From an uncultured Clostridia bacterium (GTDB taxonomy: Bacteria > Bacillota > Clostridia > Oscillospirales > Ruminococcaceae): a stretch of 64,000 bases of DNA. Both the position numbers and the translations under genes were made by a program. Below are positions 47,327-60,819 of the stretch, in pieces. The notes under the pieces were generated by a model. That model worked only from the letters and a program-made list of their open reading frames with translations, did no database searches and was not told the origin of the DNA. How positions within the stretch are numbered: the stretch's first letter is position 1; each line of letters starts with the position of its first letter. The DNA lies in NCBI GenBank assembly GCA_947632025.1, contig CANRNN010000006.1, forward strand, positions 72,030 through 136,029, read 5' to 3'.

Positions 47327-47423
47327 TTACACTCCAATCTCCATTCTCTGACCCTCGGACTCGCTCAAAGCGATGCTTTTCATATTTTATTGATTTATTA
47401 TCCGCCGGATAAGTATGAATTTA
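47327..47423. repeat. Downstream arm shared with 59822-59860 and 60197-60249
   Basis: TTACACTCC..CATTC.CTGACCCTCGGAC.CGCT and GCGATGCTTT.CATAT.TTATTGATTTA.TAT..GATAA..GAA.TTTA, overlapping the GNAT stop codon. Confidence 0.85.
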
Positions 47424-47864
47424 GATTTTCCGCTTCAGGTAAACCATATCTATCAGTTGCTTACCGCATTCGAATATTGGATGATTATAGTGCTCAACAA
47501 AGAAATTACTGACAATATGTGAGCGAACGAAACCGCAGCTCTCATAAAACGGGATCGTCAGCGGACTATCCCCCGTACCGACCTGTAAAACCGAATACTG
47601 CCCTTTGTACTTTTCCGCAACAAACTCAATCAATGCTTTGCCATACCCCATTCTTTTATATCCGGGTTCTGTTGCTATATTCTTTATCTCCAGAACGCCA
47701 TTTCCCTCATCTGTAACCACGCATTCAGCTTTTGCGCCGTCATTGATAAGAACATACATCGTTCCTCTGTCAAGATAGCTGTCGATCATATTCTCTTGTT
47801 CATCTGCCAATAACAGTAATGCAAGATAGTCTTTTTTATTTGTTTTTATCTCTTCGATCTCCAT
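47421..47864 (-). CDS. GNAT family N-acetyltransferase
   Basis: EIKNIAT.P.Y.RMGYGKALI, GTGDSPLTIPFYESCGF; start 47864. Confidence 0.92.
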   Translation of the reverse strand: MEIEEIKTNKKDYLALLLLADEQENMIDSYLDRGTMYVLINDGAKAECVVTDEGNGVLEIKNIATEPGYKRMGYGKALIEFVAEKYKGQYSVLQVGTGDSPLTIPFYESCGFVRSHIVSNFFVEHYNHPIFECGKQLIDMVYLKRKI

Positions 47865-47910
47865 TTCATACCTCAATAAATCCCGAATTATCGGTGGGCC
47901 TACGCCCTGC

Positions 47911-47985
47911 CCGACTGTATACAATTATACCACATTTTCCCCAAAAAAGCAAGCTCAAACGATTTTCGCATATCAATATTTAGAG
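47911..47985. repeat. Upstream promoter-bearing arm shared with 60744-60819
   Basis: CCGACTGTATACAATTATACCACA(T/C)TTTCCCC(A/G)AAAAAGCAAGC: 42/44 identical; contains minus-strand TTGCTT-17-TATAAT. Confidence 0.9.
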
Positions 47986-53376: not shown

Positions 53377-54295
53377 AAAGACGTTGTATTCCCTGAAATC
53401 CCCCTACCGTGAGAGTATGGATATAATCGGTTTTCAGTTTGGTCACGGCGAGAAATCAATGTGCGTTATCGGCGCTATGCGCGGCAATGAAGTCCAGCAG
53501 ATGTATGTCTGCTCACAGCTTGTAAACCGCCTAAAATGCCTTGAAAGCGAGGGGCTGATTGCCGAAAACCGCGAGATTATGATAATCCCGTCCGCTAACT
53601 ATTATTCCATGAATATCGGAAAACGTTTCTGGACAATGGACAACACGGATATAAACCGAATGTTTCCCGGTTACGACCTTGGGGAAACCACACAGCGAAT
53701 TGCCGCGGGAATTTTCGAGAGCATTAAAGGCTATAAATACGGCGTTCAGCTTGCGAGTTTTTATCAGCAGGGCGATTTTCTGCCGCACGTCAAACTTATG
53801 GAAACAGGCTTTACCGACCACGAGCTTATGAAATGTTTCGGGCTGCCGTTTGCGTTTATCCGAAAGCCTCGTCCTTATGATACTACAACCTTGAATTATA
53901 ACTGGCAGATTTGGGAAACACAGGCGTTTTCGCTTTACACAAACGCCACCGATAACATTGACGAACCGTCCGCAAAACTTGCGGTAGACGCGATCTTAAG
54001 GTTTATGGCGGCGAACGGCGTTATAAAAACAAAAGTCCCCGGAGGATACATTACCGAAATGTTGGACGAAAAATCTCTCGTGCAGATACATTCGCCTGCC
54101 GCGGGGATTTATAAGAGTTTTGTCCGCACCGGCGACGAATTCAGAAAGGGCGACGTTTTGTGCGAGATAACCGACCCCTTGGACGGGAGCGTTATCCGTA
54201 AAATTTCCGCGCCTTCGGACGGAATTGTTTTCTTTCGATATAATCGTCCGCTGGAGTTTGAAAAAACCGTACTGTATAAAATTATACCTATTTAA
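53369..54295 (+). CDS. M14 desuccinylase/aspartoacylase-family paralog, probably inactive
   Basis: GAMRGNE, DINRMFPG, GVQLAS and FSLYT where the paralog has H..E, DIH and VEMG. Confidence 0.85.
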   Translation: MRKKTLYSLKSPYRESMDIIGFQFGHGEKSMCVIGAMRGNEVQQMYVCSQLVNRLKCLESEGLIAENREIMIIPSANYYSMNIGKRFWTMDNTDINRMFPGYDLGETTQRIAAGIFESIKGYKYGVQLASFYQQGDFLPHVKLMETGFTDHELMKCFGLPFAFIRKPRPYDTTTLNYNWQIWETQAFSLYTNATDNIDEPSAKLAVDAILRFMAANGVIKTKVPGGYITEMLDEKSLVQIHSPAAGIYKSFVRTGDEFRKGDVLCEITDPLDGSVIRKISAPSDGIVFFRYNRPLEFEKTVLYKIIPI

Positions 54296-54485
54296 TTAAG
54301 TAAAAACAGCAAACAGGCTGTAATTTGACTTTATGTACAAGCTGGGTATTATCATTGCAGACGGACGTGGCAATTGTCGCGGCTCTGGGATTTGATAATA
54401 TATAAATAAAAGTTATGAACAGCACGGCAAAACGCAACGTTAAAATGCCTTTGCAAAGGAATTTCTTCTAAGTCGAACGAAAACA

Positions 54486-54515
54486 AAACGTCCCGCAGGA
54501 GCCTGCGGGACGTTT
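54486..54515. terminator. Strong inverted repeat, likely bidirectional terminator
   Basis: AAACGTCCCGCAGG-ag-CCTGCGGGACGTTT. Confidence 0.75.
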
Positions 54516-54960
54516 CAATGCAAGGCATTGTCCTGCCGTGTAACTTTTACAAAAAATATTTGTTGATGTTTTGTATCTCGTAATAATAAAATAACACATT
54601 TTCAAGATTTGTCAATACCATAAAATTAAAATATGATAGCTATAAAATATCGGGTGTAATACATTCAAAAATAAACATTTTTACAACTAATCTCAATATG
54701 ATGAAATTTGTAGGCATTTCAAATCGGAATTTTGGGGTTCATATTTCATTCTTTTTGATTATTATCCGAATTTTTAGTTGTTTTAATTTTAGTGTCCATT
54801 TTGAAATAAAGAATACCTTGCCTGCAGAATCGCCTGTAAAAGGAATTATAGCAAAACGCCTGTCGCTTTCAGAGTTGAGTGGGGACAGATTGCGACAGGT
54901 GTTCACAACGAATCAGCAGTTGTCAAAACCATATGTTTCAAATTATAATAATTAATTCAC

Positions 54961-57900
54961 TCAATTAAAGTTTAATTCTCTGCGAAGTTGTTGTATAGTT
55001 TTAAATGTAATTTCTTTATTATTGCTCAAGTAACTTTTTCTTTTGGAATCTGCCCAATATGAATCAGGAATTTTAATCAATAATTCCTTAATATCATGTA
55101 TTCCAGGAACAGCAACGATTTCAAAATCCTCAGTATATAGAATGCTCCACCCACTTATAGCGCCATTATAGTAATCAGGGTAAATATCCTTTAGCGATTC
55201 TACATATTCTTGCTGTTCTGTTGTTAAATTTGATGTGATAAAAGCATAAATCAGATACGACCTATCATATGACAATCTTCTATTAAATGGAACAAAATTA
55301 TAATATTTTCCGTTCAATAAATCCCTTATACGATATTCGTTTGGATGATAACGAGAGTACATGATATTTCCAAATATACTTAGCGAGTCAACTTCATATA
55401 AAAATCTAATATCGTTGTCGTTAATTTTCCCTTTGATAATATTACCTTTGACAAAGGACTTATTGTTTTCAGCAAGCAGGTTGAAAAAATCGGTATTTAC
55501 CATCGGTAGTAGTGAATTCACAACATTGTAGTGATGATAATCAGTTTGTGAAAATCTGCCTTTCTGTAAACCATACTAGTATAGTCGTCAAATCTGTTTC
55601 TAATTATTTGTTCTTCAATTTTGAACTTTGGTGAATATAGAACAACCTCATTTTGACGCAATACAATTTCTTCCGATGACGCTATTTTATTAGCAACAAT
55701 AACCTTAAAGAACGGCGTTGACATTAAGTAATTTATATTTGTTTTGATGATGATATTTTCCACTGTAAGAAAATCCGACAATGAAATATTGCTGCAAATA
55801 TTATCGGATAAATCGCTCCAGAAAATATTTTGCGGTTTGCGTCCCAGATAGTATGCAATGTAATCCCAAAGAAATCTCCTCGACGTAAAATAGTAGGTCC
55901 ACATTATGTCGGATATATGGGATTTGTATTCATTCGGAACAGTTTCTAAATATTCGCAAATACAGTGTATTTCATTATCAACGACCTTAAAAAATAACAT
56001 CTCTGTTTCATCTACAAGCTGCGTTGGAACGCTTATTATATTTCTGTGGTCGATACTCAATTTCGGACGCACTTCTCCTATAAAATTCAACGTAAAATCT
56101 GTGTCGTAGTTGGTGGGTAATTTCATATTTCGGCTTAACTGCACAGTTATGCCGTCAATTAAAAAACCCGATTTATGAAACTCTAAAATCCGATAAAAAA
56201 GCAAACTTTCGGCGTTTATCGGCTTGGAATAATCTTTAGGAAAGTATAAAATGTTGCGGTATTGCAGGTTTTGGGTGTCTACAAAAATTTCTTTTCTTAC
56301 AACATTGTCTTCAGATAGGGAATTAATGATGCTGCTGAAATCATGATATTGGTATGAATATTTTTCTGCAACTTTTTTGCATGTCATATCTATCAATTTG
56401 ATTGTATTCAGATTTATAAAAAAGTAAGAGCCGCTTTTATACGAAGCCTTATATTTGGAACATTCTCCGGTACATCTTGAAAATATATTGATGCTTGGAG
56501 GACAAAGCTTAATGTATCTTGTCAGTATCGTGAGAAAATACTTTTTCTCTTGTTGATTAATTTTATAATTTCTTTCAGAGCCTTCTTCGTATAAAGAATA
56601 CATATCTAAAAACAATTCCCATTCCTTACAGTGGGTACTTCGTTCGGATGTTGACTGATACATAAGTATATCGTTTAATGTTTTCTTATTTGGTATTTCA
56701 TCAGAAATATTATCATCTTTTAAGAATAATTTGACAATTGTACCCGAATTTTTAAGGCGTTCAGCGTCGTCAAAAAGAGGGGTTGAAAAATATAAGTATT
56801 CTTTTTTCCCGTCTAAAGTTAGGCAAATGACATCGGAATTATTTTTTTTGGTTGTTATCTCTATTAAATCGCATAACATAAAGCACGACAAAATGCCTAT
56901 TCCGAATTGTGAAATAGGGTAAAATTTTTTGGAAGATTCCGCGCGCATTTGATAAAAATCGGCAGAAGAATAGAAGGTATGTCCTATATGTAAAAGGTAG
57001 TTCGTTATTATTGACTTATCCATTCCAATACCGTTATCATAACAATATAAATATTTTCGTTCTTTACCATGTTTAGTGCATACATCAATTCCAAATTCAA
57101 TATTCCCAATAAAGTCAGGCAAATTTAATTGTTTACACCAGCATGCGTCAAGAGAATTTTGATATAATTCTCGAATACAAGCATATTTGTCTTTATATAA
57201 TTCTTCGCTCATCAGCAAATCAATAATGTTGGATTGATCCATTTTTATACATAAATCATCAGCCGGAATAAACTCTTTAGAACAAGACGTAACCCCTTTA
57301 GCATTGATTTTGTTGTTTATATTAAGTCCAAGCTGGTTGAGCCTATTGCATTTTTGCAGATTTAATAATTCGCCTTCAACATATTTAATATAGTCTTTTA
57401 AGAAGTAATACTCTTCCGGATTTTCACAAGGAGAATATGCATTTATTACAACATTACCCCCATTGTTGTTTATTACAAAATTAAACCCTGTAAGTTTAGA
57501 ACTCAGTGAATATTGTTATTTGTCCCTTTTTCATAGCTTAATGAATAAGATACTCTGTCCGACCCGAAATGAAGTGCGTCTGCAACTCTTAACATTGCAG
57601 CGACAAACAATAAATCAGCTTTTTCGTTTTCAAAATATTTTCCTGAAAGCTTCTGAATTTCATTTTGTGCTTCATCAAAATTTATGCCGTGAGAAAAGCA
57701 TAATTCCCCAAAAATTTGAGAAAACAATTTGCTGTAATTATGCAATTTTTCCCTGTCAAATTTTTTCTAAATTTATGCAGTAAATTCTGCTTAATTTGGC
57801 ATGATTTGCTCTTATATATTCTTTGCGAATTTGCGTGTTGATTTTATCAGCATTTGTATCAGACAATTTGTTTTTTAACTGCGGAAGCCTGCCGCTACGA

Positions 57901-58478
57901 TATTTGTGATAATCTATAGCGAGCATGGCTAAATGCTCTGTAAACATTCCTTCGTTCTGAAATCCAAAGATAAGATGCTGTTCATATCTATTTGAACTTA
58001 AAAGATTTCCATATAATTTTGTTTTAAAATTATTTATATATCCCTCCATCCATTTCTGCGTTATTTTTCCTTTTCCATCCAAACCGAACTTAGGCACAGA
58101 TAAATTTTCATCTTTGCCTTCGCAAGCAATCAATACGTTTAATTCCCTGTTCTGATATTGCCATGCTGCAGTCATGTAATAATGCGGTCATATACAGAAA
58201 AAAAGCTCCATAGTAGAGAGCTGCGCTATTTTATCGCCCAAAATCTTTTCCATGTTCATTAATACAGATCGGCTATGATCTATATTATGCGAGTCAAACT
58301 CCGGGGAAAAGCGGCAAATTTGTTGTAAATGATTAATTACATCCGGTTCAATTCTACCTATAAAATCGATCAATTCTTTTACATTGCTGTTATTTGTACT
58401 TCTGAATTTCAATTCATCAATAATTTTACCTTCCATAATGTCCTCCATAAAACAGAAATTATCGCATATATTATCCAA
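54961..58478 (-). pseudogene. HD-domain (HD-CE-like) + Hsp90/HtpG-like GHKL ATPase fusion, ~1170 aa if repaired
   Basis: Fragments in order: PEFDSHNIDHSRSV; LLHDCSM (58176-58171, a frame absent from the track); YIRANH; CFSH..LRVADALH; SPCENPEEYYFLKDY in frame with IRELYQNSLDAC, DNGIGM, ISQFGIGILSCF, GTIVKL; C-terminal piece 54961-55521. Confidence 0.8.
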
Positions 58479-58488
58479 TAAGCCATAG

Positions 58489-59543
58489 TTATAATTTTAC
58501 TATTGCCTGACCAATTATTTTCATAAGTGCTTTTCTATTTTCTATAACAACATTCTTTCGTTCGTTAGAAAGGTCAAATGGATATTTATGCAAAAAATTA
58601 TCAGAAACCACATGTAAATATGAGAATTTTATGTTTGTATTTTGTGCTGCGTAAGCCATATGACCTATCTCTGGATCAACAAAAGAGTATTCTTGACATG
58701 AATCCTCAACCCATTGTTTCGTTTCTTGTAAAACAGATGGAAGCGTTAAATGCTTTCCAAATCTAATATGCTCGTTTGAAGCTGTATCAAACATATTATT
58801 TCATGTAACAATTTCTCCATTTGGAAGAAGACTTACATTTCCTGTTGCAATAATTTCGTTAGGTACATATGAAGAATTAAGCGTTCCAAGTTTTCCGGAA
58901 TATATTATTTGTTTTACTCCAATCGAGGATAAAAAAAGAAATAATTCTACCAGCAATTTCACCCCAATAAGTATGTTTACATCCAAGTAATATTGCATTT
59001 CCCGACTTAATCTTTATTTGTTTGTATAAAAAATTTCCTCTTCCTTTCCATTCTTTATCATCTGATAGGAAATCAAGCCCTTCAACATAGCCCATTAAAA
59101 CTTATCAACTTTAGGAATATCGTTAAGTGAAGAGTTACAAATTTCATTCCAACATTGTTCCTCACTTGGTATTTCGCTTATAATATGGATATCTTTTTTA
59201 ACAGACTTGAAAAAGTAGAATAAATATTGCTATAATGATAAATATAATCAATTCCTGGGAAACACCTTATCTCTGCCTTATCGTCTATGATTTGTACTGT
59301 AGGCCTCATAAAATTAAAAAACTTCCCACCCTTTTCGTTTTCTGAGATACCGTTACTCCTATCAAAACATCCAAACACTCTTATTTGACTGATTTTTTGA
59401 AAATTTATAGAAGAATTTATTTTCATTTCTAAATATGACAATAATGAATTTCCCATAGAATGTATTTCTGCTGACATTTTAAGTGGAAAAAAATAATTAT
59501 TGTTATAGGGCAAAGGGTAAGCATACATATACAGCATCTCCAA
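58489..59543 (-). pseudogene. Nucleoside phosphorylase (PNP_UDP)-fold protein, fragmented (~350 aa if repaired)
   Basis: Fragments: ILLGCKHTYWGEIAG; IIYSGKLGTLN..PNEIIATG; HLTLPSVLQET..FVDPEIGHMA.AA...YLHVVSDN; frameshifts plus an in-frame TGA at 58803-58801. Confidence 0.72.
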
Positions 59544-59821
59544 TTTTTAATATGTTTAGACCTAATCAAATTTGATATTCATTATAAAGATATGATAATA
59601 TATACAATTATCCTTCGCTATCATTTATAACTATTATATCACACAATTCCCTAAAAGTCAACAAAAAAATTAAGGCTTTGCGCAAGATGTAAAAATCCTG
59701 CGAAAATGCAAAATTTGTTTGTGGAATTAGCTAATTTTCAAGCATATTTTTGTGCAATTTCACAAATGAGAGCTTTCGCGATTCCAACCCTTGTGATCTG
59801 TACTGCAGCAAACCCATTGAC

Positions 59822-59860
59822 TTACACTCCCATCGTCATTCCCTGACCCTCGGACCCGCT
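59822..59860. repeat. Downstream arm, distal part (homologous to 47327-47365)
   Basis: TTACACTCC..CATTCCCTGACCCTCGGACCCGCT; minus frame encodes ..SEGQGMTMGV*. Confidence 0.8.
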
Positions 59861-60196
59861 TTCATCCTCATTGAGATCCTCATCACATCGACTTCCTCGG
59901 TTTCTTCCTCAGACACGCTCACAGCGGCTGATTCGCGCTGTTCCTTTTCAGTCGATTGAATTAACAGCAGCTCATAAAGCTACAGAGAAATTTCTATCTT
60001 CAAATTATCGCTCCTCTCCCATATTTATTTGAATGTTAGATCCTTTAACCTGTATTGATATGCGTTTTTTTGTTGTTTGCAACAATTTGTCCAATAATCT
60101 TTCCATGCTGCTGTATCGTCATATTTCACCAACTTGAAATCCTATTGTTCAAGAGCTGCTACACCTGCAAAATTGCATGAAAAAGCACCGCTTAGT

Positions 60197-60249
60197 GCGA
60201 TGCTTTCATATGTTATTGATTTACTATTTGCTTGATAAATGGAAATTTA
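60197..60249. repeat. Downstream arm, proximal part (homologous to 47370-47423)
   Basis: GCGATGCTTTCATATGTTATTGATTTACTAT..GATAAATGGAAATTTA, includes the GNAT stop codon. Confidence 0.8.
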
Positions 60250-60702
60250 TGCTTTTTCCATATATACAAATTGAAGCTCATCATTGATTACTTTGATATC
60301 AAAAATTTTATATCCTAAACTTTGATATAAACGAATATTATCTTTGCTTCTCGTGCTTGTAAAAAGCTCATATCGCTTATCTGGGAAGTATTCTTCTATT
60401 TTTTTAATTAGCCTTGTGCCATAACCATTGTGTCTGTAGTTAGGGTGAACCATTAGTTTTCCAATGTATACTGTTCCCTTAGCTTCTTTTGCACGGACTG
60501 AACCAATGATAGTATTTTCATCATTATACATTTTGAGTATAACACCATTATTATATTCGTCTACTACCTCATCCAGTGTTTGCTTTAGCGGTGGAATATC
60601 CCTCCCAAAGAGTGCTGCTTCGCTTTGATAGGAAAAATATTGAAGTTGTAATATTTCCTGCAAATCATCAATGTTCGCTTGACATATCTTCAATATAAAC
60701 AT
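60247..60702 (-). CDS. GNAT family N-acetyltransferase
   Basis: YIGKLMVHPNYRHNGYGTRLI, NIRLYQSLGY; start 60702 or TTG 60693. Confidence 0.92.
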   Translation of the reverse strand: MFILKICQANIDDLQEILQLQYFSYQSEAALFGRDIPPLKQTLDEVVDEYNNGVILKMYNDENTIIGSVRAKEAKGTVYIGKLMVHPNYRHNGYGTRLIKKIEEYFPDKRYELFTSTRSKDNIRLYQSLGYKIFDIKVINDELQFVYMEKA

Positions 60703-60743
60703 CCCCCTCCAAAATTCAATTTGTAGGTCAGTCTTAAACGTAA

Positions 60744-60819
60744 CCGACTGTATACAATTATACCACACTTTCCCCGAAAAAGCAAGCCCGAAAGAAACTT
60801 CAACTATCAATATTTCGAG
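60744..60819. repeat. Upstream promoter-bearing arm (homologous to 47911-47985)
   Basis: 42/44 identity over the first 44 nt, plus a shared TATCAATATTT.GAG tail. Confidence 0.9.

Follow-up and report, generated by a model that had tools for sequence, protein, structure and literature searches.

Two pseudogenes encoding a PNP-fold protein and an HD-CE/Hsp90-like protein of a predicted antiviral class form a horizontally acquired cassette in an uncultured Clostridia bacterium

The minus strand between positions 54961 and 59661 of a 64,000-nucleotide (nt) stretch of DNA from an uncultured Clostridia bacterium (assembly GCA_947632025.1, contig CANRNN010000006.1, positions 72,030 to 136,029; the whole stretch is referred to as the window) presents nine short open reading frames (ORFs), raising the question of what these once encoded and whether their products served in immunity. 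A first-pass annotation had proposed that the ORF track hides two decayed genes, one (gene 1) encoding a nucleoside-phosphorylase-fold protein and a second, downstream one (gene 2) encoding a giant protein with an HD phosphohydrolase and an Hsp90-like ATPase, and that the two formed a defence system. Translation of the three minus-strand frames bore out the first proposal: the nine fragments are successive pieces of two frame-switching genes preceded by a promoter match, and, because both genes have intact relatives of the expected length, the fragments represent two pseudogenes. We regard the region as probably an AT-rich, horizontally acquired cassette in which a single promoter formerly served genes for two nucleotide-targeting defence-island proteins, both genes having since been inactivated.

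Intact relatives were identified with read-through translations of both broken genes, which were used only as search queries and for counts of conserved residues. The gene-2 read-through (1166 amino acids, aa) retrieved P0001, the 1159-aa gene-2 protein of a metagenomic locus designated L003, with 66% identity and 100% coverage; the other homologs included seven with 51–62% identity and a large group with approximately 30% identity. Pfam searches with the window fragments yielded matches to HD-CE (PF24391; E 1e-11 and 6e-4), with the fragment at 57506–57766 passing the threshold (45.5 bits; cut-off 27), and to HATPase_c_3 (PF13589; E 7e-7; 29.7 bits, cut-off 25). P0001 matched PF24391 with 113.8 bits (cut-off 27) over residues 44–358 and profile positions 1–261 of 263, and also presented the GHKL domain. 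As a member of the PF24391 class the window copy lacks an intact ORF, given that five frameshifts interrupt it (58436–54961). The motifs named by the first-pass annotation (SHNIDH, LLHD, LRVADALHF, RELYQNSLDA, YDNGIGM, and SQFGIG) were all seen in the three-frame translation; LLHD, seen in a third frame, is located in a short out-of-frame stretch between the first two gene-2 frameshifts. In a 27-sequence alignment of the family, the HD-type residues D48, H50, H54, H88, D89, H212, H250, R284, and D287 were invariant, and all of them are kept in the window read-through (those of LLHD in the shifted frame). The Bergerat-fold ATPase motifs RELYQN..DA, DNGxGM, SQFGxG, and GT were likewise invariant among the 27 members, as were E424, N428, D431, and the DxGxG and GxxGxG-type motifs; the read-through retains 68 of the 71 invariant family residues.

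Relationship of gene 2 to Hsp90 is indicated by several comparisons. A profile of the gene-2 family matched the N-terminal ATPase domains found in PDB structures of HtpG, Grp94, and Hsp90 (E approximately 4e-14), and the NCBIfam model "HSP90 family protein" matched with E 3e-19, under its curated cut-off. An AlphaFold model of P0001 (predicted local distance difference test, pLDDT, 83) aligned in Foldseek with full-length Hsp90, TRAP1, and Grp94 over 500–840 columns (E 3e-11) with a low template modelling (TM) score of approximately 0.4, as expected because P0001 is a multi-domain protein. Based on this model, the C-terminus of gene 2, which the first-pass annotation had described as long and unknown, is for the most part built like the middle and C-terminal regions of Hsp90, and its end varies. 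The annotation's assignment of gene 2 to HD-CE plus Hsp90-like GHKL fusions of predicted conflict type is thus supported by the Pfam, PDB profile, and model matches. A profile search of 1.84 billion representative proteins yielded 10,614 matches at E ≤ 1e-3 and 3,292 at E ≤ 1e-30, with approximately 90 representative clusters covering the full length of gene 2, and a scan of viral contigs detected no gene-2 relatives. The HD-CE/Hsp90 class presents a sporadic, fast-evolving distribution, typical of conflict genes.

The gene-2 architecture has already been predicted by comparative genomics to be a stand-alone immune protein, as described in the Tiamat preprint, which, citing Nicastro et al. 2023, presents Hsp90-like defence proteins whose N-termini carry HD or calcineurin-like domains and whose C-termini vary, and which refers to the same work (Nicastro, Burroughs, Iyer & Aravind, NAR 2023) for the prediction that these C-termini bind infection signals and trigger the fused nucleotide-hydrolysing effector. 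In the preprint, the class is described as Hsp90-like proteins with a putative antiphage role and is placed in a clade separate from Tiamat. Gene 2 resembles the HD-CE/HSP90-related predicted immune proteins (PF24391) in its N-terminal HD-CE, its Hsp90-like ATPase and middle regions, and its variable C-terminus, as well as in its sporadic, horizontally moving distribution and its defence-like neighbourhoods; it differs in that the window copy is a pseudogene and in that, in a small lineage, a PNP-fold gene lies ahead of it under the same promoter. The abstract of the 2023 study reportedly covers HD-CE, Calcineurin-CE, and PRTase-CE effector domains together with HSP90-related modules. Gene 2 is also similar to Tiamat, MORC, and paraMORC, as these are portrayed in the preprint, in that an N-terminal or central Hsp90/GHKL-type ATPase would act as a switch in a defence protein; it differs from Tiamat in that Pfam searches of P0001 and P0006 revealed no PD-(D/E)xK/NOV_C nuclease and PADLOC returned no Tiamat match. 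Gene 2 is a pseudogenised new member of a computationally known class, and having a PNP-fold gene as its partner represents a variant restricted to this lineage.

For gene 1, the read-through (350 aa) retrieved more than 160 clusters of intact proteins of approximately 346 aa, none with a Pfam domain; the best intact homologs showed 76% (P0040, 346 aa) and 74% identity with 99% coverage. Members of this family are composed of an N-terminal domain of approximately 115 aa and a PNP/MTAN-fold domain (the C-terminal ~230 residues), and an alignment of 35 sequences reaching down to 38% identity contained 42 invariant columns (family motifs LLGCKHTYWG, GKLGTL, VDPEIGH, HxxSDN, and DLSNER), 41 of which are retained in the window read-through. 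Pfam searches with the gene-1 fragments and read-through yielded nothing significant; the best match to PNP_UDP_1 (PF01048), obtained with a 235-aa piece of the L003 gene 1, stayed below the threshold (E 0.21; 11.4 bits, cut-off 25.1), and a family profile found no sequence relative, and no PNP, in the PDB. The AlphaFold model of P0040 (pLDDT 94; predicted TM score, pTM, 0.93), however, had MTAP (1je1) as its best Foldseek match (E 7e-11, target TM 0.69), along with hundreds of matches to MTAN, PNP, and UP at a probability of 1.0; E. coli AMP nucleosidase (1t8s), which likewise has an extra N-terminal domain, aligned over 317 columns. A weak match to the NCBIfam MTAN model NF005522 (E 7e-4, residues 270–325) spans the segment that contains E287 (DPEIGH) and D310 (SD), which are invariant in the family, lie 23 residues apart, and are kept in the window read-through. 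The same distance separates the ribose-binding Glu from the catalytic Asp in E. coli MTAN (E174/D197) and PNP (E181/D204), to which E287 and D310 may be equivalent. The three-layer alpha/beta PNP/MTAN nucleosidase fold of the family is, therefore, clear from the model, as the first-pass annotation had suggested for gene 1; membership in PF01048 was not upheld by sequence, as gene 1 shares with that PNP/MTAN/UDP superfamily the fold and may share the Glu and Asp, but neither PF01048 nor any PDB chain is matched significantly by sequence. The modelled fold suggests that the gene-1 product would break the glycosidic bond in a nucleoside or a nucleotide.

The two pseudogenes lie in foreign DNA. 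The G+C content of positions 54500–59700 is approximately 31%, as compared to approximately 48% in the operon on the left, and a five-gene ATP-grasp operon that ends at 54295 precedes the cassette. In the four closest congeners (L178–L181), with which synteny breaks off at 54298, DNA similarity to the window (82–89%) ends at 54293–54322 and is followed by DNA unrelated to the window; because each congener has different DNA downstream of the ATP-grasp operon, the junction after the last gene of this operon is a variable insertion spot in the genus. Both genes are missing from 40 related genomes (24 of the same genus and 16 of the same order), while the cassette presents 79% DNA identity with the metagenomic locus L003 over 4764 nt, from the promoter to approximately 50 nt past gene 2. 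The cassette is a horizontally acquired, foreign, AT-rich element.

Nine lesions, i.e., eight single-base frameshifts and one nonsense codon, were identified, all confined to the cassette (Table 1). If the organism itself carried both genes intact and the frameshifts had arisen by faulty assembly or sequencing of homopolymers in AT-rich DNA, this would account for the five frameshifts located in runs of four or more identical bases and for the retention of nearly all invariant residues in the read-throughs; however, the three other frameshifts are located in runs of 1–3 bases, and the ninth lesion is a substitution that creates a TGA codon. In addition, four of the 19 homopolymers of at least six bases in the cassette (4.6 kb) are lesion sites, whereas none of the 74 such homopolymers in the 40 intact genes of the window (42.8 kb) is broken, including 14 in the AT-rich genes just to the right of the cassette (hypergeometric p approximately 0.001). 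Confinement of the lesions to the cassette therefore makes general sequencing error unlikely. The window gene-2 protein has also evolved faster than its sister: in a maximum-likelihood tree, window gene 2 was sister to P0001 (support 100/99), with an end branch three times longer (0.44 vs. 0.14). With the gene-2 relative from locus L005 as the outgroup, 189 lineage-specific amino-acid changes were assigned to the window and 69 to L003, along with 106 and 58 synonymous changes, respectively, for nonsynonymous-to-synonymous ratios of 1.78 and 1.19 (Fisher p 0.065). By raw gene-2 identity, L003 and L005 are nearer to each other than to the window; the three-taxon test holds nonetheless because the tree places the window and P0001 as sisters. 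This rate pattern fits relaxed constraint in window gene 2, with a generally faster lineage as another possible explanation. Taken together, we regard the error explanation as highly improbable. Two further explanations for the broken frames were considered and rejected, namely an alternative genetic code in which TGA encodes Trp (whichever code is used, eight frameshifts persist, and table 11 gives intact neighbouring genes) and programmed frameshifting or phase variation (the lesions are too many and of mixed kinds). The decay is not deep, given the 41 of 42 (gene 1) and 68 of 71 (gene 2) invariant residues kept; because both genes are pseudogenes, the window locus is most likely inert and does nothing today.

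Whether the two genes belong together was assessed from both sides. Both genes are on the same strand in an operon-like layout with a single strong promoter upstream of gene 1; the gap between them measures 52 nt in the window, 55 nt at the L003 locus, and 10 nt in L005 (a contig that holds only the last 141 codons of gene 1), and all three members of this lineage have them in the same order, even though the gene-2 proteins share only 61–67% identity. Gene-2 relatives were sought within 10 kb of 69 gene-1 loci, obtained from a scan of one genome per prokaryote species, by tblastn (E 1e-5) with 39 family members; none of the 69 loci had a gene-2 homolog within that distance. Conversely, gene 1 was present in only two (L003 and L005) of 87 gene-2-family loci, comprising seven from contig look-ups and 80 from a metagenome scan, and these two represent the nearest kin of window gene 2 in the tree. 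Since the pairing occurs only in the window's nearest kin, it reflects one inherited event in a small lineage and not a recurrent system; recurrent co-occurrence across independent lineages was not observed, as both positive loci belong to the window's sub-lineage. The pair is, therefore, a real co-inherited cassette that originated in one evolutionary event and is lineage-restricted, and the proposal of a general two-gene system, for which the first-pass annotation had itself made co-occurrence of the homologs a deciding point, was largely contradicted, leaving the interpretation in that annotation partly supported. The search for intact homologs that it had suggested succeeded for each gene, with full-length intact homologs of both, but found no fully intact example of the pair among the loci examined.

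The L003 locus provides further information on the partnership. There, gene 1 is split into ORFs of 122 and 235 aa by a frameshift (L003 400–520) at a site that differs from those in the window, so gene 1 was lost independently, while gene 2 is intact, an indication that gene 2 can do without gene 1. Together with the lack of the pairing elsewhere, this independent loss in L003 speaks for an optional partnership. That gene 1 was broken independently in two relatives, and both genes in the window, suggests that such modules are costly and easily lost. These data also bear on the alternative that the two genes are mere island neighbours, i.e., autonomous single-gene units that were co-transferred as a block without functional interaction. 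In addition to the low co-occurrence and the state of L003, this alternative is favoured by the lack of a constant gene-2 partner in 64 non-redundant loci and by gene-1 homologs that occur alone on mobile elements; it is opposed by the shared strand, the short spacing (10–55 nt), and the single promoter, by the conserved order despite divergence of the gene-2 proteins, and by the nearest intact gene-1 homologs, which adjoin an HD-type deoxynucleoside triphosphate (dNTP) hydrolase and thus hint at a recurring combination of HD and PNP-fold enzymes. Overall, we consider autonomous units a possible but rather unlikely explanation.

The genes around gene-2 relatives showed no constant neighbour in 64 non-redundant locus groups, and the family looks stand-alone. 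Flanking genes encode DNA methylases, an EcoO109I-type restriction enzyme, AbiH, Abi_alpha, the PADLOC candidates PDC-S05 and PDC-S23, RhuM, Fic, DUF2971, a Schlafen-type helicase, Mob, and TraM. Within the window's own subfamily (51–66% identity), neighbours encoding nucleotide enzymes stand out. Genes encoding dCTP-deaminase/dUTPase-like, GNAT plus Ham1-like, and guanylate-kinase proteins were found upstream of gene 2 in L007, together with type I restriction-modification (R-M) and transposase genes; an AAA_33/PRTase-like gene, a calcineurin-type plus DCD fusion, and a DHO-dehydrogenase-like gene were found downstream of it in L004; and calcineurin-type plus SIR2 genes (L006) or SIR2 and AAA_15/21 genes (L002) were found near it in two other loci. 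In L007 (2574–9038) and L004 (6804–14371), the gene-2 relatives are located in tight same-strand arrays with the nucleotide enzymes, and these arrays may represent larger nucleotide-targeting islands or operons. Giant ORFs of approximately 2000 aa without Pfam matches were also seen near gene-2 homologs (L001 3–6014 and L002 13073–19207); apart from its giant ORF, L001 has a phage-like content that includes YopX, Lar, Macro, PP2C, and CobT/AAA_5 genes.

The neighbourhoods of gene-1 relatives were of two kinds. The two closest intact homologs directly follow a 224-aa gene and a gene for a 419-aa HD plus HD_assoc protein, which matched the PADLOC anti-phage dGTPase model with E 1e-88 and TIGR01353 above its cut-off. 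In these dGTPase-linked arrays (L077 6312–9379, L078, and L079 1193–4458), which adjoin an integrase or Wadjet jetABC genes, the 224-aa gene overlaps the dGTPase start by 4 nt (translationally coupled) and the PNP-fold gene begins 97–295 nt after the dGTPase gene. The 224-aa protein matched no Pfam, NCBIfam, or PADLOC model; its identification as a Clover-type nucleotidyltransferase was considered and rejected, as it had no Pfam or NCBIfam match. Other clostridial gene-1 homologs adjoin BREX brxABC, lie between IS66 and ISL3 transposase genes, are inside a conjugative element, are near HipA, Fic, and integrase genes, or are found with an MmeI-type enzyme and a pair of HD proteins in one island. 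Across the 69 species loci, however, the most common immediate neighbours were DUF2797 (17), thymidylate-kinase/AAA_33-like (13), CYTH (7), and nucleoside 2-deoxyribosyltransferase (6) genes. Beyond the clostridial defence settings, in L014, L015, L017, L029, L035, L058, and the actinomycete loci L030–L076, the DUF2797 gene usually precedes the PNP-fold gene, which is followed by a CYTH, thymidylate-kinase-like, or nucleoside deoxyribosyltransferase gene. Genes near the actinomycete homologs include some that we take, from sequence reading only, to be QueD-, QueE-, and GTP-cyclohydrolase-like (candidate labels), such genes being of the 7-deazaguanine type. The gene-1 family is always found among nucleoside or nucleotide enzymes and not always in an immune context, and its DUF2797/CYTH/kinase-type settings may represent an uncharacterised nucleoside-processing or modification pathway.

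These metabolic settings, which recur across phyla, would be consistent with the pair being a nucleoside/nucleotide salvage or modification module, with gene 1 as a metabolic nucleosidase and gene 2 as a chaperone-like regulator of the nucleotide pool. The cassette is, however, foreign, missing from the 40 related genomes, and dispensable, as it is dead; close homologs of both genes are found among R-M, Abi, BREX, Wadjet, dGTPase, integrase, and transposase genes; and the HD-CE/Hsp90 class is distributed and evolves like conflict genes. We therefore give very little credence to a salvage role.

If the preferred interpretation of two nucleotide-targeting defence-island proteins is correct, the Hsp90-like ATPase, together with the variable C-terminal region, would, following the published prediction, serve as an ATP-driven sensor or clamp for an infection cue, and this cue would lead the ATPase to activate the fused HD-CE phosphohydrolase, which would degrade free nucleotides. 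More tentatively, the PNP-fold enzyme might act downstream of the HD enzyme, cleaving the resulting nucleoside, or the nucleotide directly, so that depletion would become irreversible; its pairing with gene 2 would represent a lineage-specific add-on rather than an obligate two-gene system. The data presented here show the structures of the genes, their domains and folds, the lesions, the foreign origin, and the distribution; the role against phages, the substrates, the sequence of action, and any functional coupling are inferred. CBASS and Detocs include PNP-domain ATP nucleosidase effectors, i.e., immune PNP-fold enzymes that destroy nucleotides by cleavage of the glycosidic bond. Gene 1 is similar to these effectors in the general idea of a PNP-fold enzyme in an immune context, but it differs in having no PADLOC match and another domain organisation, and no cyclase, SAVED, receiver, or histidine-kinase partner was found in the cassette. 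Anti-phage dGTPases and Clover, which consists of the CloA dGTPase and the CloB nucleotidyltransferase (PMC12265719), also represent immunity through dNTP depletion by HD-superfamily enzymes, and a gene of the dGTPase class precedes the closest intact gene-1 homologs; they differ from the cassette described here in that the HD domain of gene 2 is HD-CE and not HD plus HD_assoc, and the window contains no dGTPase.

The two-step idea gains some independent support because the nearest relatives of gene 1 follow a dGTP triphosphohydrolase, which releases deoxyguanosine. In its broadest form, this idea would make the 346-aa PNP/MTAN family a portable second-step partner for HD-type nucleotide-depleting immune enzymes (dGTPase and HD-CE/Hsp90), in which the HD enzyme strips the phosphates and the PNP-fold enzyme cuts the base from the sugar, making depletion irreversible, such that phage nucleoside/nucleotide kinases would be unable to replenish the pool; operons for nucleoside processing, with DUF2797, kinase, and CYTH genes, would have been the source of the family. 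We regard this generalisation as doubtful.

Several points weigh against a nucleotide-targeting defence cassette. The co-occurrence of the two genes is limited to three related loci, and, therefore, the case for their functional coupling draws on a single evolutionary event and on operon-like spacing. When bacteria at large are considered, the neighbours of gene 1 look more like nucleoside metabolism than immunity, and the neighbour tallies for both genes cover the most common families only. The lesions were called from the assembled sequence alone. Furthermore, PADLOC (v2), run on the window fragments and on intact homologs (including P0040 and P0099), assigned no family to either gene, in agreement with the first-pass annotation, which did not recognise the pair as a named system, and no experimental test of any member of either family was found in a literature search.

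As the window locus is dead, its value is mainly as a pointer. With regard to gene 2, it adds one more case to the large HD-CE/Hsp90-like class (approximately 3,300 representative clusters at E < 1e-30) that is predicted to be antiviral. The unnamed PNP-fold family, which is widespread and well conserved and has no Pfam model, offers the lead of greater originality; its members in Clostridia of the gut and rumen are carried on mobile elements and in defence islands, twice beside HD-type nucleotide hydrolases. If true, two-step nucleotide degradation would extend the nucleotide-depletion theme of bacterial immunity.

Table 1. Positions of genes, domains, lesions, and regulatory features of the cassette in the window
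Feature	Position	Strand	Basis or remark
Shared mobile cassette (promoter, gene 1, and gene 2)	54911..59650	-	DNA likeness to L003, GC, broken synteny, absence from relatives
Sigma-70-type promoter match TTGACT-17-TATAAT, extended -10 TG	59633..59661	-	11/12 positions match
Imperfect palindrome GATAAT-N7-ATTATC in leader, between promoter and gene 1	59594..59612	-	Read from sequence
Gene 1 pseudogene, 346 codons	58489..59528	-	Start ATG 59528, stop 58489, by alignment to P0040
Gene-1 frameshift	near 59193	-	A run
Gene-1 frameshift	59096-59101	-	Single base
Gene-1 frameshift	58924-58931	-	T run
Gene-1 in-frame TGA	58801-58803	-	Every family member has Trp there; base substitution
Gene 2 pseudogene, ~1158 codons	54961..58436	-	Start ATG 58436, stop 54961, by alignment to P0001
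HD-CE region of gene 2 (approximate)	57362..58307	-	Contains H..H, LLHD, R..D..H
Hsp90-type GHKL ATP-binding domain of gene 2 (approximate)	56636..57236	-	ELYQNSLDA, DNGIGM, SQFGIG, SGT
Hsp90-like middle and variable C-terminal region of gene 2	54964..56635	-	AlphaFold/Foldseek on P0001
Gene-2 frameshift	near 58197	-	T run
Gene-2 frameshift	near 58146	-	Single base
Gene-2 frameshift	near 57761	-	A run
Gene-2 frameshift	near 57505	-	Within codon of invariant Trp
Gene-2 frameshift	near 55551	-	T run
Strong intrinsic-terminator-like hairpin downstream of gene 2, 15 pairs and T tail	54484..54517	-	

The promoter and operon-like layout proposed in the first-pass annotation were confirmed (Table 1), and the -10 region and the leader are conserved in L003; weaker promoter-like matches are abundant in the AT-rich DNA (44 found vs. 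32 expected by chance). The distance between the genes had been given as 10 nt, based on an earlier start codon for gene 2 (TTG 58478); the start supported by homology, ATG 58436, is preceded four bases upstream by a GGAGGA ribosome-binding site and yields the 52-nt gap reported above, and the gene sizes, previously given as approximately 350 and 1170 aa, were adjusted slightly downward. The palindrome in the gene-1 leader is also present in L003 (about 41–57), with a spacer shorter by 2 nt, and may represent a candidate operator for a repressor of the cassette; in a comparison with the dGTPase-linked homologs, L003 alone had the same leader.

Downstream of gene 2, the terminator-like hairpin is part of an element of approximately 40–50 nt (54448–54517) that resembles repetitive extragenic palindromic (REP-type) sequences and has copies with 81–91% identity elsewhere in this genome, on at least five further contigs (C1, C3, C8, C9, and C19). 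To the right of the promoter side of the cassette lies a GNAT cassette with flanks that repeat those of another GNAT gene: three pairs of direct repeats (87–90% identity, one 78%) at 47327–47962 and 59822–60795 flank two different GNAT genes located 12.5–12.8 kb apart, with the right-hand copy adjoining the promoter side of the cassette.

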